Positions 9,923 through 35,522 of a DNA stretch of 64,000 bases are shown here, piece by piece. Source of the DNA: Patescibacteria group bacterium (GTDB lineage Bacteria > Patescibacteriota > Patescibacteriia > CAIXNZ01); contig JBAZJU010000006.1 of the NCBI GenBank assembly GCA_041651155.1, positions 4,638 to 68,637 on the forward strand. Reading direction: 5' to 3'. How positions within the stretch are numbered: the stretch's first letter is position 1; every line of letters begins with the position of its first letter. Both the position numbers and the translations under genes were made by a program. The notes beneath the pieces were generated by a model. The model did not search any database. It had not been told where the DNA came from and saw nothing but the letters and a program-made list of their open reading frames with translations.

Positions 9923-10636
9923 ATGAACCAATCAAGCCATATCCAACAAATTAATATTTTACCAGTTTGTGCAGGGGTACGCGCGGTAGGATTAGTAAGA
10001 CCCAGATTTGATCCTATACAGCAGGGTTTTTTACCGCCTCAATTAGATGTAATAGGAACAGCCTTTCTGTTAAAAGGCTATGAGGTAATAATCACTTGCG
10101 AGCATGTTGTAAGAGATTTTGTAAATAATCCTACTGAAATAATCGGAATGCTTGTAATAGGGAAACAAGGAATTTATTTTCCAGTTTCGATTGATTCTAC
10201 TGATTTTGCCCACGATTTAGCAATTCTAAGGTTTAGGAAAAATCCTAATATAACAGATGAAAAATTTAAAGAATTTTTAGGTAATGAATTCTCCACTGGT
10301 CTTGAATTAACAGATAGATATCCCGATGTATCAACTAAAGTTGGTTACGCAGGCTACCCTATGGGTACTCAATTATTGAATCAAAAACACGATCCCACAT
10401 ATTCAGAAGGGGTTGTGGGTATAAAATTGTGCGAGACAGATATCAGGAAAGAAATTAGGATAACAGGACCAGTTGCGGGAGGATTTAGTGGCTCGCCAAT
10501 TGTATTGAAAGAAAGTCCACAAAAAGTTATAGCAGCGCTTGCAAATAGCCCAACTAAAGAAGCAGGTGATGCAAATATTTTTTCTGGGATTTCATGGGAA
10601 CATATTAAGGCTATAGCAACCTTGGCAAAGTCATAA
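9923..10636 (+). CDS. Trypsin-like (S1/chymotrypsin-fold) serine protease, apparently cytoplasmic (no signal peptide)
   Basis: Catalytic-triad-like motifs TCEHVV (His), AHDLAIL (Asp), GGFSGSPIV (Ser, cf. GDSGGP). Confidence 0.6.
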   Translation: MNQSSHIQQINILPVCAGVRAVGLVRPRFDPIQQGFLPPQLDVIGTAFLLKGYEVIITCEHVVRDFVNNPTEIIGMLVIGKQGIYFPVSIDSTDFAHDLAILRFRKNPNITDEKFKEFLGNEFSTGLELTDRYPDVSTKVGYAGYPMGTQLLNQKHDPTYSEGVVGIKLCETDIRKEIRITGPVAGGFSGSPIVLKESPQKVIAALANSPTKEAGDANIFSGISWEHIKAIATLAKS

Positions 10637-15825: not shown

Positions 15826-15935
15826 GTGAAAAGCCCATTTGTCATTCAGAACGAAGTGAAGAATCTATTACATCCAGTATCCCACGCTATGCTTTGAATG
15901 ACATAAGGACAAAGGGGCTTTTCGCCTTTAATTGA
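15826..15935. repeat. ~110-nt hairpin (MITE/REP-like) repeat family C copy 1, between hypothetical gene and dnaJ
   Basis: Shares ttgtcattcRgaaYgaagtgaRgaatctattacWtccag ... ctgaatgaca ... acaaaRgggc with copy at 25886-25995; arms are reverse complements (aaaagccc/gggctttt). Confidence 0.55.
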
Positions 15936-18672: not shown

Positions 18673-19629
18673 ATGAGAAGAATCTATAAATTTTGCCTTA
18701 TTGCCAGCGCCCTTATTTTAACCATTTTAATCGGTAATTTTGTCTTGGCCGCAGGCCAGGGTTATTTTTTAGAAAAGGGCAATGAAGTTTATATTTATGA
18801 TAATTTGCAGGTCAATGGCTATTTAGCTGCAGCCAAAGATAATTCTAAAATAAGCGGAATAAGCGGTGATATTTTGATCGGAGCAGATTTTAACGCAGAT
18901 ATTAATTCTAATATTTATTTTTGCAAATCCGTTAATGTTACTAATGACTGTCCGCAAAAAGCCATGATCTGGCATGGTGGTCCGGATTTCTCATTAGAGG
19001 CCATTGATCCAAATTTTTATAAAATTCAGACAAATAAAATTTTGGGCATAAATTCAGATCTTAATTTATCTGCAGCTGATGGGAGTGAGATCAGTTCATC
19101 CAGTCCGATAAAAGTTACGGGCTGTTTAGCCGCTGATGGGAGCGCTGATTGTAATCAAGGTGAAGTCAAGACCAGCATAATGTATGTAGATAGTTTAAAT
19201 AGCTTGAATAAGTTTTGCGCTGGCGGGACAAATAGCGGTAAAACTTGTATTCAGCATCTTGATTGCCCAAACAGTGTTTGTCTGTCAATAATTAAATTAA
19301 ATCCAAGCACGCTCGTTTTTGAAGATTTAAATTTAGGTGAAATCGGTACTGCAAGATTAAATAATATAACTTTACCCGATGAAACAGGAGAGCAGAAGAC
19401 AACAGCGCCGCAAATAAATTTGCAGAATGTTTGTTATGTGGCAAGCAGCTTATCATCTGATTGCCTTTCACCTGCAAATGGCGCGGTGGTTGCCCCCAGC
19501 ACGTTTTTAGCGCAAAACCCTTCATGGAATTTCACCAGCACGCTTTATCCCGCCGGTTTTCAAGGCGATAATAATAAAAAAATTTGCTGCAATTTAAGCA
19601 TTATTTATCCTGTAGCGCCTGCACAATAA
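18673..19629 (+). CDS. Secreted hypothetical protein, Cys-containing
   Basis: Signal peptide LIASALILTILIGNFVLAAGQG; 318 aa. Confidence 0.6.
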   Translation: MRRIYKFCLIASALILTILIGNFVLAAGQGYFLEKGNEVYIYDNLQVNGYLAAAKDNSKISGISGDILIGADFNADINSNIYFCKSVNVTNDCPQKAMIWHGGPDFSLEAIDPNFYKIQTNKILGINSDLNLSAADGSEISSSSPIKVTGCLAADGSADCNQGEVKTSIMYVDSLNSLNKFCAGGTNSGKTCIQHLDCPNSVCLSIIKLNPSTLVFEDLNLGEIGTARLNNITLPDETGEQKTTAPQINLQNVCYVASSLSSDCLSPANGAVVAPSTFLAQNPSWNFTSTLYPAGFQGDNNKKICCNLSIIYPVAPAQ

Positions 19630-19665: not shown

Positions 19666-20484
19666 ATGCCCAATCATTATAAAATCTGCCTAATTCTTTC
19701 ATTATTTTTACTCTCAGCTACAGCTGCCTGGGCAGGTTTTAATTATGATTCGGCCAATAATAATTTTTTATTTGATTCAATCTTGAGGACAGAAGGCAAT
19801 TATTTGCTGGTCGGCAATGCCTTTAATGAAAATTTAAAAAAGCAAGATAATAGCATTTCCACTAATTTTTTGGCCGTTTCCAATAATTTAATATTTTTAA
19901 ACAGCGGTGATGCGAATAACATTGGCGGCCAATTCTCCAGCGGTTTGCGCCAAGTTAGCAAAAATAATTTTTCCAGCCAGGCCATTACAATTGACAACAG
20001 CCAAAATTTGCAATTAGAGCCGGTTGGCGGCGCGAAATCATTGAGCCTGGAAGCCAACCGCATTTTATTAAATCAAAATTTTAGGCTCAGGAGCGGTTTG
20101 GCTTTTGATGTCCGGAGCGTGAATCAGATTTCAAATAGGACAATTTATGTTGACAAAGTATTGGCCTCTGGTCTGCAAAATTTAACCGCGGATAATCCTT
20201 TGCAGATTTCCAATAGTACTGTCTTGAATATTCCGGCCACAGCCGGAGCTGTTACGGCTGATAAAATTACTTTTGGCGCCAAAGATTTATGCGTGGTTAA
20301 GACCTGGACAGTTGTTGATAATACTTTAAAGCAGGGCGTGGGCGTGGCAGATTCTCCTATTATCACAGCGGATTGTCCTCCCAATTATTTTGTATTTGAT
20401 CTGGATGCTTCAGCAGGCAAAATGGTCTGTTGCCAGGCAGCCAGCGGGCAATTGCAGCTTAGCCAAATCCAGCAAACACCTTAA
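19666..20484 (+). CDS. Secreted hypothetical protein
   Basis: Signal peptide ICLILSLFLLSATAAWAG; 272 aa, Asn/Ser-rich. Confidence 0.6.
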   Translation: MPNHYKICLILSLFLLSATAAWAGFNYDSANNNFLFDSILRTEGNYLLVGNAFNENLKKQDNSISTNFLAVSNNLIFLNSGDANNIGGQFSSGLRQVSKNNFSSQAITIDNSQNLQLEPVGGAKSLSLEANRILLNQNFRLRSGLAFDVRSVNQISNRTIYVDKVLASGLQNLTADNPLQISNSTVLNIPATAGAVTADKITFGAKDLCVVKTWTVVDNTLKQGVGVADSPIITADCPPNYFVFDLDASAGKMVCCQAASGQLQLSQIQQTP

Positions 20485-20501: not shown

Positions 20502-20975
20502 ATGGACCAAGGCTTTAATTTTAAAATTAACAAGCAAGCTCAAAGCATAGAATTTACCATAAATACTGAAATTTATTCTTTGACAGCGATTTACAATGCC
20601 GCCTATTTATTTTTGGATAAGGCGTATGTTTTTTTAGATGGCGATCCGAAGGCAGAGATCATCGCAATATTTAAAAGGAAAGAAGGGCAAAAAGAGGAAA
20701 ATGGGAGAGAAGGCTTGGAAAAGATTGCCGGAGAATTTTATAATGAACTTTTAAATCAGCTGTTGCGGGAAAAAGTAAGCGAGTCAAATGCAAAAATCAG
20801 GGAATATGTGGTTTCAGCCGCGCTTTATAACGCTGTGCCCAATGAGGTGGATAAGCTTTTGCAGGAAGTTGAGGAGGAAGATTGGCAGGAAGATCCTTTA
20901 GGGATTGCAAAAACATGGGAGGATAATGAGAAGAGCAAAGAGGGTAAGAAGGGAGAAATGGGAAAATGGAAGTAA
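20502..20975 (+). CDS. Hypothetical protein
   Basis: 157 aa; acidic/basic C-terminus. Confidence 0.5.
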   Translation: MDQGFNFKINKQAQSIEFTINTEIYSLTAIYNAAYLFLDKAYVFLDGDPKAEIIAIFKRKEGQKEENGREGLEKIAGEFYNELLNQLLREKVSESNAKIREYVVSAALYNAVPNEVDKLLQEVEEEDWQEDPLGIAKTWEDNEKSKEGKKGEMGKWK

Positions 20976-21166
20976 TTAAGTTTAATAAAAAGATTTATAG
21001 TCTTGAAGCAATTGAAAAGGCGATTAATGAATTTAAAAATTTAGCTGAATTTAAGATAAAAGATGAGGCTGATTACTTTGAAGTGCAAATTGATAAAATT
21101 GATAATGAATATGAAGGTGTTTTGAAAGATGAATTTGGAAATTATGTATTGGGATTGATGAGCTGA
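20966..21166 (+). CDS. Small hypothetical protein (66 aa), start overlaps previous stop
   Basis: ORF only; overlap ATGGAAGTAATTAAG with previous gene end suggests coupling. Confidence 0.35.
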   Translation: MEVIKFNKKIYSLEAIEKAINEFKNLAEFKIKDEADYFEVQIDKIDNEYEGVLKDEFGNYVLGLMS

Positions 21167-21225
21167 TCTATAAGCACCAAAATTCAAATCCCAAATCACA
21201 AATAAATTTCAAAAATCAAATAACA

Positions 21226-21270
21226 AACCTTCGTCCCGCCCAGCGGGACTACGGTTTGCAAAGGCAAATA
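21226..21270. repeat. Structured repeat family B copy 2 (aaaccttcg-gtcccgcccagcgggac-tacggtttgcaaaggcaaat)
   Basis: See 17788-17831; compensatory stem substitution. Confidence 0.5.
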
Positions 21271-21288
21271 AAAAACAAAAACAAAAAT

Positions 21289-21636
21289 ATGGATAAGAAG
21301 TACGATTTAGAAGATCGCACCTTAGAGCTTGGAAAAGAAATAATTCGTTTATGTAAAACTTTACCTGCTAATACTATAAACTTTAGGCTAATAGATCAGT
21401 CTATTCGCTCTGGGACATCAGTTGGCGCCAATTATCGAGAAGCAAATGAAACTGACACAAAGAAAGATTTTAGATTTAAAATTAGAATTTGTTTAAGAGA
21501 AGCTAGGGAAACAATTTATTGGCTTGAGCTTATAAAAGAGGCTAACCAAAATTTTTCTGCCAGGATTGATAAATTGATTAGTGAGACAAGAGAAATAGTT
21601 AAGATTTTTGGTTCAATTTTGGAGAAATCTAAATAG
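21289..21636 (+). CDS. Four-helix-bundle protein (23S rRNA intervening-sequence-type protein family)
   Basis: Start at MDKKYDLEDRTLELGKEI; motif SVGANYREA ... DF ... REA...E typical of this family. Confidence 0.65.
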   Translation: MDKKYDLEDRTLELGKEIIRLCKTLPANTINFRLIDQSIRSGTSVGANYREANETDTKKDFRFKIRICLREARETIYWLELIKEANQNFSARIDKLISETREIVKIFGSILEKSK

Positions 21637-21737
21637 TTTGTGATTTGCTATCTGTGATTTGCTATTTATTTGAAGCTTGCAATTTGGTGCTTGGGATTTG
21701 AAACAAAGATTTAGGGGGTAAATTTTTTAAAATATTC

Positions 21738-23219
21738 ATGTTAGATTTACAAACCATCAACAATTTAGATACCAAGTCAGTAGGATATTTTCGATTTAAA
21801 CAGTTTGGCAATGAATATCTGCTGACTAATGAAACTGGGGAGTATGTTTTTTTACCTGAAAATAATTTCAAGGAATTTTTAACTGGAAAGCTAGATTCTA
21901 AAAGTGAAAATTTTCAGGAGTTACTAAACAAGTCGTTCCTTAAAGATAAAAATTATCTGGCGAATGCAGTTTTAAAGTATCGCGAGCGCTATCATTTTTT
22001 AAAATTCGGGCCGTCTTTGCATATTGTGGTTGTAACTTTAAGATGCAATCATAAGTGTATTTATTGCCATGCCAGCGCCGGTAGCAGCGAGGATAAAGGT
22101 TTAGACATGGATTTGGCAACTGCCAAGAAAGTAGTAGATACGATTTTTCTCACTACCAATGATGCGATTTGTATTGAGTTCCAGGGCGGAGAGCCGCTTC
22201 TAAATTGGCCGGTGGTTAAATTTATCATTTCTTACGCAGCGGAAAAAAATAAGCTGGAAAAGAAAAATTTAATTTTTAGGCTCGTGTCCAATTTTAGCTT
22301 GATGGATGAAGAAAAAATGAAGTTCCTGATGGACAATGAAGTTTACTTCTGCACTTCGCTTGACGGCGACGAGGAAACTCATAATTATAATCGCATTTAT
22401 ACGGAAGGCAATAGCTATCAGAACGCGGTCAACTGGATAAAAAAGATAAACGCCGAATACGAGGAAGTAAATAAGGGCAAGAAAAAAAATTATTATAGAG
22501 TAGGCGCCTTGATAACTGTGACCAAAAAAACACTGGCTAGTTACAAAGAAGTGATAGATACTTATCTTGAGCTTGGCTTTAAAAGCATTTATCTGCGCTA
22601 TTTATATCCTTATGGCTTTGCCAGGCAAGCCAAAGAAAAAATTTGGTACACAGTAGATGAGTATGTTGACTTTTATAAAAAATCTCTTGATTATATTTTA
22701 GCCAAAAATTATCAGGGCCAGCTTTTTTACGAGAACATGGCCGCGACTTATTTGCGCAAGATTTTAGACCAGGAGGAGCCTCATAATCTGGATATGCGTT
22801 CGCCCTGCGGCGCGGTCATCGGCCAATTATCTTACAATTACAATGGTGATGTGTACACTTGTGATGATTCCAGGTCTCTTTCCAGACTAGGTGATGAAAC
22901 ATTTAAACTGGGCAATATTAAGCAAAATACTTTTAGCGAGCTGGTAAATAACAGTTTATGCAAATCAATGTGCGTTGCCTCATGCACCAATGGCTTGCCT
23001 GGCCATAATGAGAGCGTTTACCAGCCATATTGGGGAGCCTGTCCGGTCTACAATTATTGTCTTTCCGGCAATATATTCCCGGCCATGAAGGAAAATTTTA
23101 AATGGCAAATTGATGAGCAAATTCTTGATTATATTTTTGAAAAATTAAAAGATAAAAAAAATAAGGATATTTTTAAGGAATGGTGCAAAGCTTCACGGCC
23201 GAGAGCGAAATATGAATAA
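21738..23219 (+). CDS. Radical SAM/SPASM-domain peptide-maturase-like enzyme (493 aa)
   Basis: CX3CX2C at LRCNHKCIYCHA, GGEPLL motif, C-terminal Cys-rich SPASM-like region (CGAVIG ... CDDS ... CKSMCVASCTNG ... CPVYNYC). N-terminal region YFRFKQFGNEYLLTNETGEYVFL resembles peptide-maturase N-termini. Confidence 0.85.
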   Translation: MLDLQTINNLDTKSVGYFRFKQFGNEYLLTNETGEYVFLPENNFKEFLTGKLDSKSENFQELLNKSFLKDKNYLANAVLKYRERYHFLKFGPSLHIVVVTLRCNHKCIYCHASAGSSEDKGLDMDLATAKKVVDTIFLTTNDAICIEFQGGEPLLNWPVVKFIISYAAEKNKLEKKNLIFRLVSNFSLMDEEKMKFLMDNEVYFCTSLDGDEETHNYNRIYTEGNSYQNAVNWIKKINAEYEEVNKGKKKNYYRVGALITVTKKTLASYKEVIDTYLELGFKSIYLRYLYPYGFARQAKEKIWYTVDEYVDFYKKSLDYILAKNYQGQLFYENMAATYLRKILDQEEPHNLDMRSPCGAVIGQLSYNYNGDVYTCDDSRSLSRLGDETFKLGNIKQNTFSELVNNSLCKSMCVASCTNGLPGHNESVYQPYWGACPVYNYCLSGNIFPAMKENFKWQIDEQILDYIFEKLKDKKNKDIFKEWCKASRPRAKYE

Positions 23220-23300
23220 CTATAACTTTGGTTGTATTTTACGTTTAAAATCGCACAATGCTTTAAAATTTAATAAAAAGATAGTATAATAAAGATAACT

Positions 23301-23801
23301 ATGCTAAACAAACTGCCAAAACTAAAGAAAAAATTTCAGGAATTTCTTAATGATGAAGAAGGCAAGATAACTAAAAAAGATATTATCATGCTTGGCATTG
23401 GCGCAAGCGCGCTTGGCATCATGGCCGAAGGAATCAATGCTGCTCATGCTGCTACGCCCACTTGTAGCGCAGGTGGTGGAGTTTATACCTCACCGCCAAA
23501 TTATGTTCAATGCAATGAAGGTTGGGCAGGAAGTTCAGGCTGCGGACCTCATGATTGCAACGGCGGTGGCTCGGGCTCAACTACCAATCTATGCCAAAAT
23601 AATTTGTCATACCCTTTGGGTTCTTGCACTAATACCCCCGGAGCTATTTGCGGGGTGGATATAGGAGATACTCATTTCGGCCATAATAATTTTGTTCATA
23701 ATGAAGGAGTAGTCGGTTCTCATTGCTCACACGGCTCTCATGGCTCTCACGGCTCACACGGCTCTCATGGCTCTCATGGCTCTCATGGGTTTGCCGGTTA
23801 A
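23301..23801 (+). CDS. Secreted Cys/Gly-rich protein with C-terminal (Ser-His-Gly)x7 = His-Xaa-Ser repeat tail; candidate radical-SAM substrate (HxsA-like)
   Basis: Charged N-terminal ~30 aa, hydrophobic segment MLGIGASALGIMAEGINAAHAA, 10 Cys core, then SHCSHGSHGSHGSHGSHGSHGSHGFAG. Confidence 0.7.
   Translation: MLNKLPKLKKKFQEFLNDEEGKITKKDIIMLGIGASALGIMAEGINAAHAATPTCSAGGGVYTSPPNYVQCNEGWAGSSGCGPHDCNGGGSGSTTNLCQNNLSYPLGSCTNTPGAICGVDIGDTHFGHNNFVHNEGVVGSHCSHGSHGSHGSHGSHGSHGSHGFAG
23726..23789 (+). repeat. Tandem 9-bp repeat (cayggctcw)x7 encoding the His-Gly-Ser repeats; frame-preserving simple sequence repeat
   Basis: Seen directly: cacggctct catggctct cacggctca cacggctct catggctct catggctct catgggttt. 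Confidence 0.8.
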
Positions 23802-23811
23802 ATTATATTTT

Positions 23812-24648
23812 ATGAAAAAAATAATTTTGATATTAGCGATAATAGCCTTATTAATAATTGTTGGTGTAGTTATTTTTTTTATTTATCTCAAAGCACCAGC
23901 GCGGCCAACAAATGTAAATCAGCCAGTGGCGGTTGCCAAAGAAAAAATTATTGGTAATTTTTCATTATTTCTTAATGAGCTAATAAATGTACAAAAAGTA
24001 CAGCCAGTTGCACTCACACCAATATTGGAATACTTAAGTTTTTGTGAATTTAAAAATAATAACATCTCTTTTGATCAGCAATGCATTAAGACCAATGAAA
24101 CATATTATGGCGTAAAAAATAGCTCTGCCGATTGCACCATTAAAGATGGAGATTTTGCTGAAATTGATTTTATCAAAAAAGGAGAACAAGACAATTTTTT
24201 GAAAATTTGCCAAGAATATATTTCTGCTCTTAATACCTATTACAATAATAATTCTCAAGAAAAAACAAGTTTAAACGCCCAAAGGTTTTATCAGTTTTAT
24301 AATGATTGTAATTTGCTTTGGGATAATAAGCTATATGGCGATAACGAATATTGTGATGCTGGAGATAATTGCTATGCAATCTTGCTGCCAGAGGACCAAA
24401 ATTGTCCTAATAAAATAAAGATTGATACCGTCAGTCTTGATAGCATTAAAACGGTTCAATGCCAAACTCAAGTCGGCTTTAGAAGAGCCAGCCAAAAATC
24501 AGATTGTCTGAACATCAAGAATTTAATGGCTCGGCTCTTTTGCCTTGACGCATTTGACAATAATCTTTGCTCAGAAGTCACAGCCAGCGTGGAAAATTTA
24601 AAATTACAAGATTTTGTGACAAAATATCAATTACAAACTGCCCAGTAA
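23812..24648 (+). CDS. Cys-rich membrane-anchored (signal-anchor) extracytoplasmic protein
   Basis: Start at MKKIILILAIIALLIIVGVVIFFIYL (ATG 23812), since the six-frame ORF start at 23740 lies inside the previous gene's repeat; about 14 Cys. Confidence 0.6.
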   Translation: MKKIILILAIIALLIIVGVVIFFIYLKAPARPTNVNQPVAVAKEKIIGNFSLFLNELINVQKVQPVALTPILEYLSFCEFKNNNISFDQQCIKTNETYYGVKNSSADCTIKDGDFAEIDFIKKGEQDNFLKICQEYISALNTYYNNNSQEKTSLNAQRFYQFYNDCNLLWDNKLYGDNEYCDAGDNCYAILLPEDQNCPNKIKIDTVSLDSIKTVQCQTQVGFRRASQKSDCLNIKNLMARLFCLDAFDNNLCSEVTASVENLKLQDFVTKYQLQTAQ

Positions 24649-24741
24649 ATTATGTAAAATTTTACCGATAGGCCATTGCCAAAATGGCTTATTTTTTTTA
24701 TTATTAAGTAACAATGGGGTGAAAAAGCCTTTGGTTTAATT

Positions 24742-25881
24742 ATGGCAAAAACGCTTAAAAACGATAAATTTTGGCTATCAATCAGCACCAGATGCAATAA
24801 TCAGTGCCTTTTTTGCCATGATAAGGAAAATCAGGTAAACGGACGTTTTTTTACATTGGCAGAGGTTCAAGATAAGATTGAACAGGCAAAAAAAGAAGGT
24901 TACAAGCGTTTGATTTTAAGCGGCGGGGAAGCTTCAATTAATCCTGATTTTTTGAAAATAGTCAGATATGCTCACGATTTAGGCTTTAAAGAAATCCAGA
25001 CAATCACTAATGGCCGCTATTTTTATTATTCCAAATTTGCCGCTGAGGCGATTAAAGCCGGTCTGACTGAAATAACTTTTTCTCTGCACGGCCATAACGA
25101 AGAACTGCACGAGGAATTTACCGGAGTTAAGGGTTCTTTTCAGCAGGCTTTAACTGGCCTGGCTAATGTCAGAAAATATCCGCAAATAATTGTTAATATT
25201 GATATAGTGATTAATAAATTGAATTACCCAAAGTTATATGACATAATTCAGTTTTATGCCCAGAATTTCGGGGTCTATGAATTTGATCTTTTACAAGTTG
25301 TCCCTTTTGGCCAAGCCTGGGAAAATCGTGATAAATTATTTTATGATTTTAATGATGCTTTGCCTTATCTGAACAAAGTGTGGGAGCTGGCAAAAAATGA
25401 CCAGAGATTTCATATCTGGACCAATCGTTTCCCGGCGCAATATCTGGAGGGTTATGAATTTTTGATTCAGGATCCGTATAAATATTTTGACGATGTTTTG
25501 GGACGCAAAAAAATGTTTGCGGAATTTATAAATGAAAATAAATTAATGCCTTGTTTTAATCCGGAGCGTTGCAAATCGTGCAACCTAAACGATTTTTGCC
25601 AGAAATTAATTAATTTAACAAAAGGAGATTTGTCAGACAAATTAATGAAATTAACAATGCCGCCTGTTTGTCTTGATTTGCCCCGCGATAATTATGAGAT
25701 TAATTTTTTGAATGCGCAAGGCAGAATCAATTTGGAAAAATTTGTGGATTTTTATATTAATAATTTGTACAACCTTAAATCTTTACGTTGCGATGATTGT
25801 AATAAATTTAAAGATTGTAACGGATTGAATATTAATTTAATTAAGGAAAAGGGTTTTAAAGTTTTAAAGCCAATATCATGA
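24742..25881 (+). CDS. Radical SAM enzyme with C-terminal partial-SPASM/twitch Cys motif; paralog 1 of six tandem copies (379 aa, longest)
   Basis: CX3CX2C at RCNNQCLFCHD (residues 18-25), SGGEASINP, CKSCNLNDFC (CX2CX5C). Confidence 0.85.
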   Translation: MAKTLKNDKFWLSISTRCNNQCLFCHDKENQVNGRFFTLAEVQDKIEQAKKEGYKRLILSGGEASINPDFLKIVRYAHDLGFKEIQTITNGRYFYYSKFAAEAIKAGLTEITFSLHGHNEELHEEFTGVKGSFQQALTGLANVRKYPQIIVNIDIVINKLNYPKLYDIIQFYAQNFGVYEFDLLQVVPFGQAWENRDKLFYDFNDALPYLNKVWELAKNDQRFHIWTNRFPAQYLEGYEFLIQDPYKYFDDVLGRKKMFAEFINENKLMPCFNPERCKSCNLNDFCQKLINLTKGDLSDKLMKLTMPPVCLDLPRDNYEINFLNAQGRINLEKFVDFYINNLYNLKSLRCDDCNKFKDCNGLNINLIKEKGFKVLKPIS

Positions 25882-25885
25882 CCAG

Positions 25886-25995
25886 GGCGAGAACGCCCTT
25901 TTGTCATTCCGAATGAAGTGAGGAATCTATTACTTCCAGGATTCTTCGCTTCGCTCTGAATGACAGTGAAGACAAAAGGGCGTTTTCGCCCGACA
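25886..25995. repeat. ~110-nt hairpin repeat family C copy 2, inserted between radical SAM paralogs 1 and 2
   Basis: Same conserved core as 15826-15935 with compensatory arm changes (acgccc/gggcgt vs agccc/gggct). Confidence 0.55.
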
Positions 25996-26004
25996 ATTAA
26001 TTCT

Positions 26005-26940
26005 ATGGCTAATCTAGGCTACATCCAATTAAACAGAACCTGTAATCAAAAATGCCTTTTTTGTTCTAATCCAGAAAACGGCAATGTTTTGGATTTAGCT
26101 CAAGTCAAATTTTATATTGATGATTTTGCGAATAAAAATTATCAGGGCGTAATTTTAACCGGCGGCGAGCCGACTTTAAATGCAGATTTAGAAAAAGTAA
26201 TTAGTTATGCCAAGTCCAAAGGTTTGGAAGTAAGGATAATTACCAATGGCCAAAAAACAGCTGACTTAGAATATCTAAAGAAACTAAAAAATGTCGGCTT
26301 GGATTTAATTCATGTTTCAGTGCAGTCTTATGACCCGAAAATCCAGGATTATCTGAGCCAAAATCCAGGTTCATTAAAAAATATCCTAAAAACTTTGGTT
26401 AATGCTTGGCGCCTGAATTTGCCTGTAAATATAAATACAGTGATCAATAGTTTTAATGCCAAAAGCCTGGATAAAAATATTAAATTTTTTCTGGTTAAAT
26501 TTCCAGAAATTAATCATTTTGTTTTTAATAATCTAGATCCTGAAATGAATCGGGTAGAGCAAAATAAATTTGTGGTGCCAAGATTAATTGATTTCAAGGA
26601 ATCTTTAAAAAGAGCTTTTGAATCGTTAAGTAAATTTGGCAAAACTTTCCGGGCAGAAAGAGTGCCTTTATGCTATATGGCTGAATATGGAGAATTTTCC
26701 ACCGAAACCAGAAAAATAGTTAAAAATGAAGAAAGAAGCATTTTATTTCTGGATGATAGAAAAGATCCTTATAGCATCCAAAAAAATTTTTATTATAAAA
26801 AAGCAAAACAGTGCGGCCAATGCAGCCTGAATGATATTTGCGCGGGTCTGTATGCCATGGATACGTATTTTGACAGTAGGGAATTGGAGCCGCAGCTGAT
26901 TGATAAGCAACTCATTATTAATAAAATTAAAAATGAATAA
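26005..26940 (+). CDS. Radical SAM twitch-domain enzyme, tandem paralog 2
   Basis: Start at MANLGYIQLNRTCNQKCLFCSNPENG (ORF track start 25960 lies in the repeat element); LTGGEPTLN; CGQCSLNDIC. Confidence 0.8.
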   Translation: MANLGYIQLNRTCNQKCLFCSNPENGNVLDLAQVKFYIDDFANKNYQGVILTGGEPTLNADLEKVISYAKSKGLEVRIITNGQKTADLEYLKKLKNVGLDLIHVSVQSYDPKIQDYLSQNPGSLKNILKTLVNAWRLNLPVNINTVINSFNAKSLDKNIKFFLVKFPEINHFVFNNLDPEMNRVEQNKFVVPRLIDFKESLKRAFESLSKFGKTFRAERVPLCYMAEYGEFSTETRKIVKNEERSILFLDDRKDPYSIQKNFYYKKAKQCGQCSLNDICAGLYAMDTYFDSRELEPQLIDKQLIINKIKNE

Positions 26941-27814
26941 GCGGGTGGAAATTTATATTGGTTTTAAATGCAATAATGATTGTGTTTTTTGCGTTGAAAG
27001 AAATATCCGCCTGCAAAATAAAGATAAAATTTTATACTCCGATCTGACTGCAATTGTCAATAAAATTAAGGATTTGAAAAATCAAGGCTATGGCCATATT
27101 AATTTTTTGGGCGGGGAGCCATTTTTGGAAAAAAACTTTTTGCCTTTTTTGCAGGCCGCTAAACAAAATGGCCTGTCCACCGCAGTCACCACCAATGGCA
27201 GCCTGCTTAGCAATGAAGAAATCGCCAAGTCACATTTGCCTTTGCTTGATGATTTGATTATCTCTATTCATGGCCACAATGAAGAACTGATAAGCCAGCA
27301 ATCAAAAAATCCCGGTTTGTTTAAAAGTTTGCTTGAGGCTTTTGCTAATATAAAAAAATATTTTCAAGGCAGACTGCTTAAAGCCAATTGCGTAATAAAT
27401 AAATTAAATTATAAAGATCTGCCGGAAATTATTGAGTTTATTTGTACTAACGGCATCCACGAAATTAGCCTGACAAATATGTCTCTCAAAGGTTACAATA
27501 ATGAATATGTTGTGCCTTTGAGCGAACTAAAAAAAGTTATACCCAAAATCGCAGATTATGCCAAAGAAAATAATTTGGTTCTTCGTTTTTCTGATTTGCC
27601 CTTTTGTATTTTGGGGGATAATTATTATCTGACTAATGAAATTTTTGCCGATGAGCGCGTTAAATATAATGCGGCCAATAAAGAGGAAAGTTTTTGGCGG
27701 CCCAAGCTTAAAACCGAAAAATGTAATGAGTGCAAGCTCAAGGATCTATGCATGGGAATTGATTTAGAATATTATAAATTATTTGGGGATTGTGAATTGA
27801 ATTCGGTAATATGA
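26933..27814 (+). CDS. Radical SAM twitch-domain enzyme, tandem paralog 3 (start overlaps stop of paralog 2: ATGAATAA)
   Basis: MNKRVEIYIGFKCNNDCVFCVERN; LGGEPFLE; CNECKLKDLC. Confidence 0.8.
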   Translation: MNKRVEIYIGFKCNNDCVFCVERNIRLQNKDKILYSDLTAIVNKIKDLKNQGYGHINFLGGEPFLEKNFLPFLQAAKQNGLSTAVTTNGSLLSNEEIAKSHLPLLDDLIISIHGHNEELISQQSKNPGLFKSLLEAFANIKKYFQGRLLKANCVINKLNYKDLPEIIEFICTNGIHEISLTNMSLKGYNNEYVVPLSELKKVIPKIADYAKENNLVLRFSDLPFCILGDNYYLTNEIFADERVKYNAANKEESFWRPKLKTEKCNECKLKDLCMGIDLEYYKLFGDCELNSVI

Positions 27815-27986
27815 AATTTTTTGTATTTTTGGATCTCCGCCTTTTGATTCTAGACAAAATTACAAATTAGCTACAAATTTAACAAAACAATAACTAGAAA
27901 AAGTCTTTTTGTATGTTTTGTATAAAAATTCGTAATTTTGTAGGAGTCAACCATTTTATACCCCACCTAAAGTTAAATATACCGAT

Positions 27987-28883
27987 ATGAGAAACATTGA
28001 GATTAACATTGGCAATAGCTGCAATAATGAATGTCTTTTTTGTATGGTGGACCACTCCAGCCGTGGTTTTGTTGCTTATAAAACAATTGAAAAAGAGATT
28101 ATCAGGGCAAAACAAAATGGTTTTGAGTCCATTGGTTTTTTAGGCGGGGAATTTACCTTGCATCCTGAGGTTTTAAAAATTGTAAAACTAGCCAAGATTT
28201 TAGGTTTTAAGATTATTCACATCATTAGTAATGGCCGTAAATATCAAGATGAGAATTTTGTCAAACAACTAATTAATAATGGCGTTAATCGCTTCTCAGT
28301 TTCAATCCATAGCCATAAGATGGAAGTTGAAGATTATTTAACGCAAAGGCCGGGAGGATTTGCAGAAAAAATTCAGGGCTTGAAAAATTTGGTAAAAATG
28401 AATCAGCCTGTTTCAGCTAATTTAGTCATCAACAACTTGAATTATCAGGATATTGCGGAAACTTTAAATTTTTTAAACGGGCTAGGAATTATTGATTTTC
28501 GTTTGAATTTTATCTGGTTGCATGGCCGGGCTTTAGCTAACCAAAATTTATTTCTTAAATTTAATGACTTTTTGCCTTTGGTGGATAAAATTATTAATCT
28601 GGCAAAAGAGAAAAATCTTACCATTGCTTTTGAAGGAATACCCGCTTGTTTAATTAAAGATAACAATAAATTGGATTACATCGGCGAATTAAGAGATTTA
28701 AAAACAGAAGTGGTAGCTTTTAATAATCCGCAAAAAGAAAGAGAAAATTTTAATTGGCAGGAAAGGAAGACCAATGAATTTAAAATTAAGCATGAAAAAT
28801 GCCTGGAGTGCGTTTATAATAATTCTTGCGAGGGTGTATGGAGAGATTATATTAACTTCTTTGGCTGGAAGGAATTTTTTTAA
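27987..28883 (+). CDS. Radical SAM twitch-domain enzyme, tandem paralog 4
   Basis: IGNSCNNECLFCMVDHS; LGGEFTLHP; CLECVYNNSCEGVW; ends FGWKEFF. Confidence 0.8.
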   Translation: MRNIEINIGNSCNNECLFCMVDHSSRGFVAYKTIEKEIIRAKQNGFESIGFLGGEFTLHPEVLKIVKLAKILGFKIIHIISNGRKYQDENFVKQLINNGVNRFSVSIHSHKMEVEDYLTQRPGGFAEKIQGLKNLVKMNQPVSANLVINNLNYQDIAETLNFLNGLGIIDFRLNFIWLHGRALANQNLFLKFNDFLPLVDKIINLAKEKNLTIAFEGIPACLIKDNNKLDYIGELRDLKTEVVAFNNPQKERENFNWQERKTNEFKIKHEKCLECVYNNSCEGVWRDYINFFGWKEFF

Positions 28884-28937
28884 ATATCAATCCGAAGAAG
28901 CGATTGGCCAATCGCTTCTTCGGACAAGTTTTATCCT

Positions 28938-29786
28938 ATGTCTTTAATCCGCTTAACAAATTTATGCAATGCAAAATGTTTATTCTGCAATTTCCCAGAT
29001 GATTGCCGAGTTTTAAGTTTGGACGAAGCAAAAAAAGAAATTGATACTATTACTGATGATTCGGTTGCTTTTACTGGCGGTGAGCCAACGATTCATCCGT
29101 TTCTTAAAGAGACAATTAGTTATGCCAAGCAAAAAGGGATTAAAAACATTGAACTGCAAAGCAATTGTTTTTTGCTTGAAAATTTAGATTTGGTTAAGGA
29201 ATTAAAAGCATTGGGTTTGACCGGAGTTTTTGTTACAGTTCATTCTGAGCAAAAAGAAGTTTTTGAAAAAATCACCCAGGTGCCCGGGAGTTTTGAAAAA
29301 GTTTTGCAAGGAATCGCTAATTTAATTTCCTTAGGGGTTAAAGTGCGAATCAATATTGTTATTAATTTTTTAAATTATAAGAATCTAGAAGAAATCACTA
29401 AATTTATTTACAGCCAATTTCCACAAATAAAAAGTATTGATTATTCTTTTGTCGTACCGGTTGAAAAAGTTTTAAAGCAGCCAGAATTATTGCCAAAAAT
29501 AAGCGAGGTTGTACCATTTTTAAAAAAAGCCTTTAAATATTGCCAGGAAAATAAAATTAGTTTTTCTAATCCAGGCTGTGGCCTGCCTTTATGTTTTATT
29601 CCCGAATATAAAGAAAATAGTTTGGAATATAATTTTTTAAAAAAACAAATAGAAAATGGGTTAATTTCTGATAATCGTTTTGAAAAGATTAAGTTTGCTA
29701 AATGCAAAACCTGTGAATTTGATGAATTTTGTCTGGGCTTTTGGCCAAATTATGTTAAAATTCACGGTGAGCAGGAATTTATTTAA
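28938..29786 (+). CDS. Radical SAM twitch-domain enzyme, tandem paralog 5
   Basis: RLTNLCNAKCLFCNFPDD; FTGGEPTIHP; CKTCEFDEFCLGFW. Confidence 0.8.
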   Translation: MSLIRLTNLCNAKCLFCNFPDDCRVLSLDEAKKEIDTITDDSVAFTGGEPTIHPFLKETISYAKQKGIKNIELQSNCFLLENLDLVKELKALGLTGVFVTVHSEQKEVFEKITQVPGSFEKVLQGIANLISLGVKVRINIVINFLNYKNLEEITKFIYSQFPQIKSIDYSFVVPVEKVLKQPELLPKISEVVPFLKKAFKYCQENKISFSNPGCGLPLCFIPEYKENSLEYNFLKKQIENGLISDNRFEKIKFAKCKTCEFDEFCLGFWPNYVKIHGEQEFI

Positions 29787-29797
29787 TTTTATTATTT

Positions 29798-30691
29798 ATG
29801 GACAGAGTTGATATAAAAATCGGCTTTAAGTGCAATAACAATTGCCAGTTTTGCGTCCAGGGTGAAAAAAGGTATAAACATGAGAACAGAACATTGGATG
29901 AGATTAGGAACGCTTTAGCAGAGGCCAAAGGACAAGGCGCCGCAGGCGTGGTTTTTACCGGAGGTGAGCCGACCATTCATCCTGATATTTTGGCAGCCGT
30001 AAAATCCGCCCGTGATTTGGGTTTTAAAAATATCCAGATTCAATCAAACGGCCGGATGTTTGCCTATTTGGATTTTTGCAAAAAGTTAGTTTTGGCCGGG
30101 GCAAATGAATTTTCCCCGGCTTTGCACGGCTCAAACCCAGAAATCCATGATGAATTAACCAGCAGTCCTGGCGCGTGGCAGCAAGTGGTGCAGGGGATTA
30201 AAAATTTAAAATCACTGGGGCAGCATGTTTTGACCAATACAGTAATTAATTCTGAAAATTATCAGGATTTGCCAAAGCTGGCCCAGCTTTTTGTTGATTT
30301 GGGCGTTGACCAATTCCAATTTGCCTTTGTCCATATTTTGGGTACGGCAGAAAAAAATAAAGATTGGATTGTGCCAAAGATGAGTGAAGTGATGCCTTTT
30401 GTAAAACAAGGCTTGGAGATCGGGATTAAGGCAGGGAAGGTTGTGATGACTGAAGCTATCCCTTTTTGTTTAATGCAGGGCTATGAAGATTTTATTGCCG
30501 AAAGGATAATGCCTGAAACAAAAATTGTTGATGCCGAAGGCGTAATTGAAAATTTTGCTGACTATCGTTGGAATCAGGGGAAAGTTAAAAGGGAAGAATG
30601 CAAGGTGTGTAAATTTTTTAAGCTTTGCGAAGGCCCCTGGAAAGAATACCCGGAAATTTTTGGCTGGGATGAATTCCAGCCGATCTTATAA
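29798..30691 (+). CDS. Radical SAM twitch-domain enzyme, tandem paralog 6
   Basis: IGFKCNNNCQFCVQGEKR; FTGGEPTIHP; CKVCKFFKLCEGPW; ends FGWDEFQPIL. Confidence 0.8.
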   Translation: MDRVDIKIGFKCNNNCQFCVQGEKRYKHENRTLDEIRNALAEAKGQGAAGVVFTGGEPTIHPDILAAVKSARDLGFKNIQIQSNGRMFAYLDFCKKLVLAGANEFSPALHGSNPEIHDELTSSPGAWQQVVQGIKNLKSLGQHVLTNTVINSENYQDLPKLAQLFVDLGVDQFQFAFVHILGTAEKNKDWIVPKMSEVMPFVKQGLEIGIKAGKVVMTEAIPFCLMQGYEDFIAERIMPETKIVDAEGVIENFADYRWNQGKVKREECKVCKFFKLCEGPWKEYPEIFGWDEFQPIL

Positions 30692-30693
30692 AT

Positions 30694-32175
30694 ATGCAAA
30701 ATCCATTTGAAGTTATTTTTTTAGCTTTTTTATTTATCTTTGGCATCATAATCTGCTATGAGGATTTTAGGTTTGACAAAATCAGGAATAAATGGATTAA
30801 ATGGGGTTTTATAATCGGCGTTGCTTTGTACTTGTTGCAGATTATTTATTTAATTTTTTCATCTCAAACAATTGAATTGCATAATTATTGGCAGATAATT
30901 TTAAATACCTTGATTGCCTTTGTTTTGGGGTTTACCCTCTGGTATTTTAAGCTTTGGTCAGGAGGTGATGCGAAACTATTTACTCTCTTTGTTTTTTTAC
31001 TGCCGATCAGCTTCTATTCTGAATGGAATTTTATTTATTGGCCGCCTTTAAATTTATTGATAAATATTACAATTCCGATTTTTATTTATTTGCTGATTAA
31101 ATTTTTACTTTATCCCTTTCAATTGCTGATAAATTATCTAAAAAATCCCCATTTACTTAAAGAATATTATCGCAATTATAAAAGCAGGAATAAGCTTGAT
31201 AAGAAAAAAATCAATGAATATTTGGCTGCGGCCTTGAGCTTTGTTATAATTTTGATATTTTTTCAAATTATAAGAGTGCGGTTGGGCGATTTTTTGCATC
31301 CTTATCTCGGCAGCCTGATGATTGCTTTTTACTTTTTTATGGGTTTTGTAGTTTTTCAGCCCTTGCGGAAATTAATGCAAAAAAGAATTATTTTGGCTTT
31401 AATTTCAGTGATTGCGTACTTTGTGGCTGGAATCATATTTTTTCGTAATTTGGTTTTCGCTGATTTGCACAATTTATTTGCCGTGCAGTTAATTTTTATG
31501 CTTTCTTATTATTATATCTTCAAATACGGCAAAGCCCTGATTATGTTTTTGTATAATTCAGCTGAAGTAAGAATGATTCCGGTAGAAGAACTGCAGGCCG
31601 GAGTTTACATTAACAAAGATTATGTCAGTAATGTTTTAGGCAATCGTTTTAATCTGGAAAATTTTAAAAACAGCCTGGATGCAACTTTGGCTAATGAGGA
31701 CAAGGAACAATTATGGAGCCTGCTTAAGCAAAAATCAGACAAAAGCCATAAGGAAAAACAATATATTCAGCTGGTTGCTTATTTGAATCCGCAAAGTTGG
31801 CCGTATTTAATCAAGCAAATTTTTCAGATAAGAAAACAAAAAAAGGCTGGCCAAGACCTGTTGGAAAAAATTTCCGCCAAGTTAAATTTAGAACAAAAAT
31901 CAGAATTAGAAAATATTTTAAATCACACGGATGAATTTAAAAAATTTTTAAAGTCAATTCGCGGAAAATTAACTGCAGAGCAAGCAGACAAACTAAAGGC
32001 CATGATAATGCAAAGAAACGAAGAGATTAAAGCCCATGGCTTGCAGCCGATTGATAAAATTATTTTGCATAAAACCTTTGCTTTTGCGCCTTTTATGCTT
32101 TTGGGCGTGATTATAACTCTCGTCACAAAAAGTTCTTTAATTCATTTAATTTACGTTTACATTTTGCACAAGTAG
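30694..32175 (+). CDS. Prepilin-peptidase (A24 aspartyl protease)-like polytopic membrane protein fused to a ~330-aa C-terminal TM/coiled-coil extension
   Basis: Motifs CYEDFRFDKIRNKW (first Asp region) and LWSGGDAKLFTLFVFLLP (cf. GxGDVKL second catalytic Asp of PilD/FlaK/TadV); starts 3 nt after paralog 6. Confidence 0.6.
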   Translation: MQNPFEVIFLAFLFIFGIIICYEDFRFDKIRNKWIKWGFIIGVALYLLQIIYLIFSSQTIELHNYWQIILNTLIAFVLGFTLWYFKLWSGGDAKLFTLFVFLLPISFYSEWNFIYWPPLNLLINITIPIFIYLLIKFLLYPFQLLINYLKNPHLLKEYYRNYKSRNKLDKKKINEYLAAALSFVIILIFFQIIRVRLGDFLHPYLGSLMIAFYFFMGFVVFQPLRKLMQKRIILALISVIAYFVAGIIFFRNLVFADLHNLFAVQLIFMLSYYYIFKYGKALIMFLYNSAEVRMIPVEELQAGVYINKDYVSNVLGNRFNLENFKNSLDATLANEDKEQLWSLLKQKSDKSHKEKQYIQLVAYLNPQSWPYLIKQIFQIRKQKKAGQDLLEKISAKLNLEQKSELENILNHTDEFKKFLKSIRGKLTAEQADKLKAMIMQRNEEIKAHGLQPIDKIILHKTFAFAPFMLLGVIITLVTKSSLIHLIYVYILHK

Positions 32176-34361: not shown

Positions 34362-35522
34362 ATGGATTTAGAAAGCTATAAGAAATTAGTTGAGGAATTA
34401 GATGATAAAATTGGGAAAAAAAGAAATTCGATTAGAATATTATTTTTCATTGCTTTATTCATAGTTTTGTTTATTTTAGCTAATAAATATTCTTGGGCTG
34501 AAACTTTGGGCTGGAAGTTTGCATTAGCTTTTATTTATACTTGCTATCCAGGCTTTATGCTATGGGCTCCATGGGATTTTAACTGGATTTTGCAGTATTT
34601 TAAAAGCTATAGGGAATTATTGCAAAAAATAAAAAGTTATAAGGAGGAAATAAAAAAAATAGAAGAAACAAATAAAGTAGTGAAAAATAAGGAAGGGATT
34701 GAGAAGCTTGAAAGATTGAGAACTGTTTATTCAGAAATTTTTAATAGAAGAATAAGCGTTGAATCTTTGGAAGAATATGAGGAGTTTATTAGTATTGATA
34801 AAGATTTGTCAACCAATAATTATTACTTTGATTATGAGACTCGTAGGAAATATGAATTACTGCACAAATATTCAAAACAATTACAAGAAAGAATAATAAA
34901 TTTTAATCAAGATAAAAGAATCGGGGTGGTAAAAACGTTTATTGGTATAAAAAATGAAAATATTTCTAATGAATCTGATGTAAAAATAAATTTTAATGCT
35001 GAACAAAAAGTAAGATTAGTAAATATTGAAAGTTTTAAAAATAAATATAAGCAGTATAAGATTCGAGACGGAAAAGAGGATTGGAGGTCTGGTAGAAAGA
35101 TCAAAATTGATTATTTAAAGAAAAATTTGCAAAACATTAATCTTGGGTTACAAGGCGAATTAATTGTATTGGATTGGGAGAGAGATAATCTAATTCAATG
35201 CGGTCTTAACAATTTAGCTGAAAAAGTTCGGCACATATCGCAAGAGCTTGGAGACGGAGTAGGATTCGACATACTTTCTTATGACGAAAATGGTAACGAA
35301 AAATTTATAGAAGTAAAAACTACAAAAAGTGGCATGAATACTCAGTTTTATTATTCTGAAGGTGAATTGAATTTTATTAATAATACACAAAATTATTATT
35401 TATATCGTTTGAATTTAGAAAATGAGGATGAAGCGGAATTGACGATTATTAGTAAGGACGAATTTTTGAATAAGTTTGAAGTTTTACCTTATCAATATAG
35501 TGTTAAATTTAAAAATGAATGA
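34362..35522 (+). CDS. Membrane-anchored protein with C-terminal DUF3883-like (PD-(D/E)xK nuclease-fold) domain
   Basis: Two N-terminal TM helices, coiled-coil middle, C-terminus GELIVLDWERD...GFDILSYDENGNEKFIEVKTT...YLYRL matching DUF3883/NOV C-terminal signature (D...E-V-K). Confidence 0.6.
   Translation: MDLESYKKLVEELDDKIGKKRNSIRILFFIALFIVLFILANKYSWAETLGWKFALAFIYTCYPGFMLWAPWDFNWILQYFKSYRELLQKIKSYKEEIKKIEETNKVVKNKEGIEKLERLRTVYSEIFNRRISVESLEEYEEFISIDKDLSTNNYYFDYETRRKYELLHKYSKQLQERIINFNQDKRIGVVKTFIGIKNENISNESDVKINFNAEQKVRLVNIESFKNKYKQYKIRDGKEDWRSGRKIKIDYLKKNLQNINLGLQGELIVLDWERDNLIQCGLNNLAEKVRHISQELGDGVGFDILSYDENGNEKFIEVKTTKSGMNTQFYYSEGELNFINNTQNYYLYRLNLENEDEAELTIISKDEFLNKFEVLPYQYSVKFKNE

Follow-up and report, generated by a model that had tools for sequence, protein, structure and literature searches.

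What kind of system brings seven radical S-adenosylmethionine (SAM) enzymes, a protein ending in His-Xaa-Ser repeats and a prepilin-peptidase-like membrane protein together in one run of genes? The question is raised by a 64,000-nt stretch of DNA from a Patescibacteria group bacterium (assembly GCA_041651155.1, contig JBAZJU010000006.1, positions 4,638 to 68,637), referred to below, at its full length, as the window. A first-pass annotation had described ten co-directional, tightly packed genes between 21738 and 32175, and all ten open reading frames (ORFs) were found there on the + strand. We regard it as very probable that the locus is an Hxs-type system with HxsC-like paralogs. The wider reading, in which everything from about 18.7 to 32.2 kb makes up a His-Xaa-Ser (HXS) system for protein maturation, in a form expanded in Patescibacteria, is the one we favour on balance, with less assurance.

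Identification of the locus

The 493-aa radical SAM/SPASM maturase encoded at 21738-23219 (+) matches the HxsB model TIGR03978 over residues 17-482 with 500.4 bits against a cut-off of 370 (E = 4.6e-150), and the Pfam domains Radical_SAM and SPASM both match it. Upstream, the product of 20502-20975 (+) scores 63.7 bits with the NCBIfam model for HxsD, TIGR03976 (cut-off 50), and carries LLNQLLRE, a version of the LLNDYxLRE motif. Since HxsB and HxsD are above their curated cut-offs and a HxS repeat protein adjoins, the locus was assigned to the His-Xaa-Ser systems. The first-pass annotation had taken the system to be an undescribed one, which was mistaken, as the function of HXS systems has been published (PMC13128918). 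It had also begun the block too late, at 21738; HxsD belongs to it, as does the gene for a 66-aa HxsD-like protein (20966-21166, +; NCBIfam NF038315, 78.8 bits, cut-off 41) that shares 10 nt with the end of HxsD.

Relatives were compared through loci collected around HxsB in 17 genomes and, from metagenomes, around the A24 gene; L-numbers denote the loci compared in this work. HxsD orthologs with 56-75% identity lie upstream of HxsB in L001-L008, and the HxsD-like gene is kept beside HxsD in L001-L010 and in the Omnitrophota locus L033. In the window the order is HxsD, HxsD-like, an inserted gene described below, HxsB, HxsA (the repeat protein), a membrane protein, six HxsC-like genes (R1 to R6) and an A24-family gene. 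The spacing from HxsD to the A24 gene is operon-like, with gaps of -10 to 172 nt. The overlap of R2 and R3 that had been noted was found, and amounts to 8 nt from the likely ATG at 26933 or 41 nt from a TTG at 26900; the ATG of the A24 gene lies 2 nt past the R6 stop codon.

Six short HxsC-like enzymes

The Pfam Radical_SAM domain was found in all seven radical SAM genes (E = 2e-14 to 2e-27), and SPASM in HxsB alone. For every one of the six paralogs the top NCBIfam models are HxsC4 and/or HxsC (E = 1e-20 to 8e-49). R1 (24742-25881) scores 104 bits with HxsC4 (cut-off 500) and 98 with HxsC (cut-off 268); R2 (25960-26940) scores 93.5 bits with HxsC, TIGR03977, nearly the whole model being covered. 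The scores with HxsC4 and HxsC, respectively, are 90 and 70 bits for R3 (26933-27814), 141 and 85 for R4 (27987-28883), 91 and 90 for R5 (28938-29786), and 166.5 and 99.2 for R6 (29798-30691). All six genes are on the + strand. Their products align over the full length with mutual identities of 25-32%, and canonical HxsC proteins, from Klebsiella and Nostoc plasmids, are 23-28% identical to them.

CNxxCxFC is invariant across the six paralogs. The CX3CX2C motif starts at residues 18, 28, 13, 12, 10 and 12 in R1 to R6, compared with residue 101 in the Klebsiella and 123 in the Nostoc HxsC. It was said to lie within the first 25 residues of each, which is true of five; GGEP, also ascribed to all, is present in four, R1 having GGEA and R4 GGEF, ie only GGE is common to the six. 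The third motif of that description, a C-terminal CX2CX5C, does occur in all six, is followed by Gly, and is found twice in R1. An upstream Cys in the context PxC is present in five paralogs and absent from R1. The arrangement PxC…CX2CX5CxG is common to canonical HxsC and the paralogs and is complete in R2-R6, where one conserved set of four C-terminal Cys is consistent with a single auxiliary cluster. Judged by these motifs, R1 to R6 are twitch-type radical SAM enzymes with a single predicted auxiliary cluster, shorter than a full SPASM.

The AlphaFold model of R6 has a predicted local distance difference test (pLDDT) value of 95.5. The solved folds closest to it are those of BlsE and SkfB, which each have one auxiliary cluster, followed by SuiB, GDGT-MAS, viperin and MoaA, and DesII is also among the neighbours. 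The predicted fold supports the twitch description and does not separate peptide from small-molecule substrates. R6 is the most conserved of the paralogs and the likely HxsC equivalent; its homologs in Patescibacteria, Woesearchaeota, Elusimicrobiota and Omnitrophota have identities of about 57-87%. There are more than 2,000 homologs at E <= 1e-10; among the best 120, those named by their source are called 'radical SAM protein' or something similarly generic. In the 2023 release of PADLOC no Hxs-type model matched the proteins of the locus, the only matches being generic viperin-type radical SAM ones.

Orthologs of R1 are 41-73% identical (L001-L008, L019), those of R2 55-85%, R3 46-78%, R4 49-88%, and R5 48-72% (L004, L019). 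A neighbour-joining tree resolved six separate ortholog clades, one per paralog; it was rooted on HxsB alone, with no other radical SAM families, and monophyly with HxsC is not provable from it. Because orthologs are 41-88% identical and paralogs differ by about 70%, the duplications are old and each copy has been retained, which argues for distinct roles of the paralogs.

The repeat protein and the adjacent membrane protein

HxsA (23301-23801, +) was correctly described in the first-pass annotation as a secreted, Cys- and Gly-rich protein of 166 aa ending in (SHG)x7. It contains 8 Cys and 31 Gly, and its C-terminus reads SHC and then (SHG)x7, ie HCS(HGS)6, with seven consecutive HxS units at 23721-23783. 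A Lys-rich leader is followed by a hydrophobic signal segment ending in an ordinary AxA signal-peptidase-I site, a Gly/Cys-rich middle, GHNNFVHNEG and the repeats. Across 13 aligned orthologs the leader residues P6, K9, K10, F15, L16, E19, G21 and K25 are invariant (…LPKLKKKFQEFLNDEEGKITKKD…), the middle is hypervariable in both length and sequence, and GHNNFxHNxG…HCS(HGS)n is conserved. The Cys modification that had been proposed is an unlikely chemistry, the Cys of the middle region not being conserved among orthologs; because of this the His/Ser/Gly repeats are the more likely site of modification, as they are in E. coli. The scores with the curated models are below threshold, at 40.9 of 65 bits for HxsA3 (N-terminus) and 41.6 of 55 for HxsA4 (C-terminus), and Gly at every third residue produces a weak Pfam Collagen match. 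A word-index homolog search missed close orthologs of this low-complexity sequence and found only Omnitrophota proteins named HxsA4.

Two further ideas concerning HxsA were tried and rejected. The FLNDEEG motif of the leader recalls the Flp prepilin site, and the leader as a whole (FLNDEEG-KITKKD-hydrophobic) resembles such a site only loosely. Pfam Flp_Fap gave no match even at E <= 10 and one ortholog is without the Gly, leaving a Flp/TadV-type leader as a weak lead only. A diversity-generating retroelement acting on the hypervariable middle, suggested by an Avd-like four-helix-bundle gene nearby, was discarded when 15-38 kb yielded no template/variable repeat pair.

The next gene encodes a membrane-anchored, Cys-rich protein of 278 aa (Memb; 23812-24648, +), with 12 Cys in its outer part. 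Its likeliest start is the ATG at 23812, rather than 23740 as first annotated. No NCBIfam or Pfam family matches it. Homologs detected by tblastn adjoin HxsA in L002, L004, L008 and L019, and in L001, L007, L009, L010 and L033 the corresponding place is taken by Cys-rich ORFs that begin with a hydrophobic segment. A Cys-rich membrane-anchored protein of this type is found beside HxsA in most loci and is regarded as its conserved partner.

The A24-family protein

The last gene of the block (30694-32175, +) encodes a polytopic membrane protein. Pfam PF01478 matches residues 12-128 and passes marginally (27.2 bits, cut-off 26.5); it is the only domain that Pfam finds, there being none else at E < 0.001, and a precomputed match is recorded for only some of the orthologs. 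The NCBI name for the protein is 'prepilin peptidase'. Peptidases of the A24 family have two catalytic Asp residues, the second in a GxGD-type motif. In 18 orthologs (46-81% identity) D24, KLW[AS]GGDAKLF (containing D92) and a C-terminal HKTFxFAPxMLxG are invariant. A conserved insertion of about 320 residues separates the catalytic core from the conserved last helix, and what had been called an A24 peptidase fusion is better described as an A24 peptidase with a large insertion.

The structural model (pLDDT 72, pTM 0.53) gave no Foldseek match in the PDB at E < 1, and a profile search of PDB sequences returned nothing relevant, including no solved A24 structure such as FlaK. A HEPN RNase domain at residues 387-455, towards the C-terminus and inside the insertion, was hinted at by Pfam Cas_Cas02710 (E = 0.005) and PADLOC CARF_HEPN (E = 5e-4). 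It was rejected, since the 18 orthologs keep an Arg-Asn pair without conserving His448. In every context examined the gene closes a radical SAM array. Source-named homologs come, with one exception, from Patescibacteria-group metagenome-assembled genomes (MAGs); linkage of the gene to HxsB loci was seen in Saccharibacteria (L009) and Elusimicrobiota (L015).

Conservation of the cassette

The order up1, up2 (two secreted proteins), HxsD, HxsD-like, HxsB, HxsA, Cys-rich membrane protein, R1-R6, A24-like recurs in Parcubacteria-, Falkowbacteria- and Buchananbacteria-type MAGs, and the cassette is partly present in Omnitrophota, Elusimicrobiota and Saccharibacteria. L019 is fully syntenic, with 72-87% identity per gene, and continues into CysS, which is also downstream of the cassette in L018 and L034. 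L004 and L034, which are the same contig, have the same order with three extra genes inserted. HxsA adjoins HxsB in 12/12 of the bacterial relatives with downstream sequence. The proposal of one functional unit, comprising radical SAM maturases and a His-Xaa-Ser repeat protein, is borne out by co-conservation in every bacterial relative examined (L001-L011, L019, L033); loss of the link to the repeat-protein genes in relatives, which the first-pass annotation had named as grounds for giving up its reading, was not seen.

Outside Patescibacteria, R6- or R2-type enzymes lie beside HxsB/HxsD in L011, L013, L014, L015, L025 and L033. The R6 type accounts for the cases in DPANN archaea, Elusimicrobiota and Omnitrophota, and an R2-type enzyme (48% identity) is near HxsD-HxsB-HxsA in the Polyangiaceae MAG L011. 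Orthologs of R1-R5 (at least 41% identity) were found only alongside HxsB, in a sample that was gathered through HxsB and is biased to that extent.

Some relatives carry additions to the array. In L019 (8163-9854), the closest of the syntenic relatives, the ortholog of R6 continues in frame into an additional domain of about 265 residues at its C-terminus, absent in the window. In L034 (4325-9996) a 410-aa protein of unknown type lies between R5 and R6, and an 889-aa fusion of radical SAM and HD domains and a 294-aa protein lie between R6 and the A24-like gene.

A proposed pathway and its alternatives

The following sequence of events is proposed. The Lys-rich leader of HxsA would be bound in the cytoplasm by HxsB and/or the HxsD-type adaptors, and HxsB and the HxsC-like enzymes would install radical-mediated modifications in or next to the GHNNFxHNxG / HCS(HGS)n region, with R6 as the HxsC equivalent and R1-R5 as added tailoring enzymes for distinct sites or chemistries. 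The precursor would enter the membrane by way of its hydrophobic segment, and the cytoplasmic leader could be cut by the A24-like protease and/or the signal sequence by signal peptidase I; the A24 family cuts at the cytoplasmic face, N-terminal to the hydrophobic segment. The mature His-rich repeat protein would then be exposed, along with the Cys-rich membrane protein, on the outer face of the membrane, and might hinder the entry of phage DNA by analogy with the E. coli HXS system. We infer both the removal of the leader by the A24 protein and the action of all six enzymes on the adjacent proteins. A gene 2 kb downstream (34362-35522), encoding a 386-aa NOV_C protein (Pfam, 4.6e-14) with PADLOC matches to PDC-S36 (6.9e-36) and PD-T4-1 (2.6e-22), is of defence type and gives weak supporting context for a defence role. 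The full chain, with six enzymes on HxsA, A24 processing and an antiphage function, is held tentatively and falls a little short of an even chance.

A more ambitious version, which we would call 'mega-HXS', is more doubtful again. It would have, in Patescibacteria and partly in Omnitrophota and Elusimicrobiota, one ribosomally synthesised His-Gly-Ser repeat protein tailored serially by at least six dedicated single-auxiliary-cluster radical SAM enzymes, each with its own site or chemistry, and freed from its leader by a dedicated, insertion-bearing A24 intramembrane aspartyl protease. On the surface of these ultra-small monoderm bacteria the product would form a barrier to the entry of phage DNA.

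Several observations weigh against the pathway. None of the paralogs reaches an HxsC cut-off, the best being R6 with 166.5 of 500 bits for HxsC4 (NF038332) and 99.2 of 267.9 for HxsC (TIGR03977), and the N-terminal domain of HxsC, about 100 residues, is missing in all six. The closest solved fold to R6, BlsE, is that of a sugar-nucleoside enzyme, and conservation as high as that of R6 is unusual for a defence gene. In the HxsA ortholog P0242 Trp replaces the leader Gly. Given the AxA site in HxsA, export can be explained without the A24 protease. R6 orthologs (about 60% identity) also occur without HxsB, HxsD or HxsA in L027-L029, and another (about 56-60%), in a Gracilibacteria MAG (L024, 6921-11390), has NrdD-NrdG on one side and NrdR on the other, the surroundings being free of Hxs genes. 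A24-like homologs end Hxs-less radical SAM arrays in L030-L032, and the genes downstream of it in two of these (L031, 11267-14374; L032, 11310-14568) encode a secreted PKD/Ig protein, several type IV pilin-like proteins and a trypsin-like protease. The radical SAM array with the A24-like protein is a separable module, combined with Hxs genes in the lineage of the window, and because the module also occurs without them the action of all six enzymes on HxsA is not established. The large radical SAM protein preceding R6 in the non-Hxs clusters was considered as a possible HxsB and rejected, these being NirJ2/AhbD-like SPASM proteins.

The alternative that survives best, and which we judge unlikely, takes this separability further. 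The locus would consist of two modules, ie the Hxs genes with one HxsC-like enzyme (R6, perhaps R2), and a separate, widespread Patescibacteria machine made up of the remaining array and the A24 protein, whose substrate would be a surface glycan or lipid precursor, or envelope proteins such as up1 and up2 or the Cys-rich membrane protein. The Hxs-less arrays of L030-L032 fit such a division, as do the clusters of L027-L029, where R6 orthologs are accompanied by 8-12 radical SAM genes and by GT2, GT4, GT28, PMT_2 and DUF483 genes, the nearest solved folds, among them those of enzymes acting on sugars and nucleotides (BlsE, DesII, viperin and MoaA), and the extra variable genes (the radical SAM-HD fusion and the 410-aa protein) found inside the array of relatives. 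The cassette of the window, however, holds no glycosyltransferase or sugar-nucleotide gene, its spacing is operon-like from HxsD through to the A24 gene, orthologs of R1-R5 appear in the loci fetched only where HxsB is present, and the same multi-enzyme layout follows HxsA4 in Omnitrophota.

A second alternative, improbable in our estimate, accepts HXS-like chemistry and gives it a role other than defence, the (His-Gly-Ser)n protein being a metal-binding or redox surface factor, or a structural or attachment factor of episymbiotic bacteria. Poly-His/Ser repeats are good metal ligands, and the weak Collagen match of HxsA, with Gly at every third residue, also speaks for this reading. The cassette is conserved vertically with flanking housekeeping genes (CysS in L018, L019 and L034), the GC content is flat across the window, and the very high conservation of R6 points the same way. 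Against this, HxsA has a hypervariable middle and a defence-type gene lies close by, both of which fit an arms race, and the sole experimental function of any Hxs system is antiphage defence (PMC13128918).

Very little remains to recommend a third, in which the A24-like protein would process pilins from other loci as a standard type IV prepilin peptidase, linked to the array by position only, or in which the radical SAM enzymes would modify pilins. Its NCBI name and the pilin-like genes after the A24-like gene in L031 and L032, which carry G-F-T-L/I-I/F-E sites, speak for it. In the 64-kb window, however, no class III prepilin site (G-[FMILVA]-[TS]-[LIF]-[ILVF]-E) was found in any frame, and the protein has its conserved insertion and its invariable place at the end of a radical SAM array; the A24 domain is the only one that Pfam finds in it. 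Finally, a cofactor-biosynthesis function for the six paralogs (MoaA, QueE, NirJ or AhbD type), a placement that the first-pass annotation had itself set against its reading, is effectively refuted: MoaA, NirJ and AhbD models do match at E = 1e-15 to 1e-25 and MoaA is a structural neighbour of R6, but MoaA scores of 53-88 bits are far below the cut-offs of 231-325, the MoaA, NirJ, AhbD and viperin models rank under the HxsC-type models in every paralog, QueE is absent from the top 25 NCBIfam matches listed for any of them, the block contains no other cofactor-pathway gene, and the paralogs are co-conserved with HxsA, HxsB and HxsD.

The HXS pathway described above thus stays the preferred reading, and under it the variant splits the function of HxsC over six enzymes, all of them conserved, and brings in a protease as a candidate for processing. 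It thereby offers a natural dissection of the pathway, both of the part played by each enzyme and of the cleavage of the leader. It extends HXS systems from Pseudomonadota to Patescibacteria, Omnitrophota, Elusimicrobiota and DPANN archaea, and R6 points to a large unannotated family. It also draws attention to the array and A24-like module of Hxs-less genomes. If true, mega-HXS would join radical SAM maturation to processing of the prepilin-peptidase type, a combination that would be new.

Neighbouring genes and other features of the window

Two genes for proteins with signal peptides precede HxsD on the + strand and were included on the basis of synteny. Homologs of up1 (18673-19629) lie upstream of HxsD in L001-L007 with 28-36% identity, and homologs of up2 (19666-20484) directly upstream of HxsD in L001-L008 with 24-44%. 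Neither protein matches a Pfam or NCBIfam family. They are probably accessory parts of the cassette, a functional link being suggested by synteny alone. A C-terminal Cys-Cys motif is common to the secreted proteins upstream of HxsD, namely KKICCN in up1 (19570-19629), GKMVCCQ in up2 (20400-20484) and GSMMCCET in the Omnitrophota protein (L033, 6525-7115), which is encoded directly upstream of HxsD.

Between the HxsD-like gene and HxsB is a gene for a four-helix-bundle / 23S rRNA intervening-sequence (IVS) protein (21256-21636, +; TIGR02436, 90 bits; PF05635, 67.9 bits), bracketed by 33-nt inverted repeats (21170-21202 and 21637-21669). L001 and L002 carry it at the same place, whereas L003-L008 are without it. 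Because of the inverted-repeat flanks and its presence in some relatives only, it is probably a passenger insertion, a small mobile or IVS-like element that is not part of the system. A small ORF (128-152 aa, MEDKVIYKELSYKIVGILF…GxxExxY-like) between HxsB and HxsA in L002 (11666-12052) and L008 (3264-3722) is another insertion of passenger type.

Within the operon, terminator-like hairpins follow the membrane-protein gene (24667-24693) and R1 (25884-25899), and a perfect hairpin of 15-16 bp lies between R4 and R5 (28891-28924). These may be internal attenuators or RNA-processing sites. A 74-nt intergenic repeat occurs before dnaJ (15830-15903) and, 82% identical, between R1 and R2 (25892-25965); it holds an internal inverted repeat, TGTCATTC…GAATGACA, and has no match in Rfam. 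A scan of 15-36 kb with Rfam gave no RNA family at E <= 0.1. Elsewhere in the window are a gene for a secreted, extremely Cys-rich protein (8687-9388) with three repeats of about 30 residues (YCGD[GY]xCNNxETCxxCxKDCGxCP) and a Trypsin_2 gene (9923-10636).

Comparison with known systems

The E. coli HXS system is an antiphage defence in which exported, mature HxsA acts outside the cytoplasm and blocks phage DNA entry (Li et al. 2026, PMC13128918). The processing of HxsA is radical-SAM-dependent, as is a site-specific modification of +8 Da inside one of its HxS repeats, and HxsC binds HxsD; the nature of the modification and the cleavage and export of HxsA were left open by this study, the sole experimental one. 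More than 99.8% of HXS systems have exactly four genes, the organisation HxsD-HxsB-HxsC-HxsA accounts for over 99% of those described, and 99.7% of those known are in Pseudomonadota (PMC13128918).

The locus described here resembles the canonical system in having HxsB and HxsD above their cut-offs, an adjacent tandem HxS substrate with an export signal, and enzymes with the PxC…CX2CX5CxG arrangement. It differs in its Patescibacteria host and in its gene order, which is D-B-C-A in the canonical system and D-D'-B-A followed, after the membrane protein, by six C-like genes here. Where the canonical system has one HxsC, there are six short enzymes without the ~100-residue N-terminal domain and with scores below the cut-offs, and there are two HxsD-type proteins. 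In HxsA the conserved Lys-rich leader is long, the repeats are C-terminal with Gly as the usual Xaa, and a peptidoglycan-binding domain is absent. The Cys-rich membrane protein, the A24-like protease and the upstream secreted proteins are additions.

The rare variants covered by the NCBIfam models HxsA3, HxsA4, HxsC4 and HxsD-like (NF038309, NF038313, NF038332 and NF038315), for which only the database models and no published description were found, are closer. They share the leader type …LPKxKKxxxxFLxxEEGKxSKK…, and the HxsD-like protein is above its cut-off here too; the differences are that the window HxsA is below the cut-offs of both HxsA3 and HxsA4 and that no enzyme reaches that of HxsC4. 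The Omnitrophota locus L033, with an HxsA named HxsA4 by NCBI, follows the same plan (CC-tail protein, HxsD, HxsD-like, HxsB, Cys-rich membrane protein, HxsA, radical SAM genes). It has at least nine radical SAM genes, none reaching the HxsC4 cut-off and one being an R6 ortholog with 58% identity, and includes PapB-like and B12-type radical SAM enzymes, both of which the window is without.

Among characterised twitch enzymes (BlsE, SkfB, BtrN, MoaA), the best solved matches of R6 are BlsE and SkfB, with identities of only 15-20%, and their substrates, a sugar nucleoside and a peptide thioether, respectively, are not transferable to R6. SkfB moreover has an RRE/N-terminal domain, which R6 does not. 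The A24-like protein shares with PilD, TadV and FlaK both Asp motifs (…EDFxxxKIxN… and GGDAK), and its C-terminal FAPFMLLG helix is invariant; it differs from them in the ~320-residue insertion, which contains extra helices and a soluble helical domain, in having no pilin substrate nearby, and in being found always with a radical SAM array. A full-text literature search with related terms found no description of an HxsC replaced by six individually conserved short HxsC-like enzymes, nor of an attached A24 protein bearing an insertion. The system is thus of a known kind, HXS, and is partly covered by the HxsD-like, HxsA3/A4 and HxsC4 models of NCBIfam; what appears to be new is the six-enzyme array and the A24 protein.

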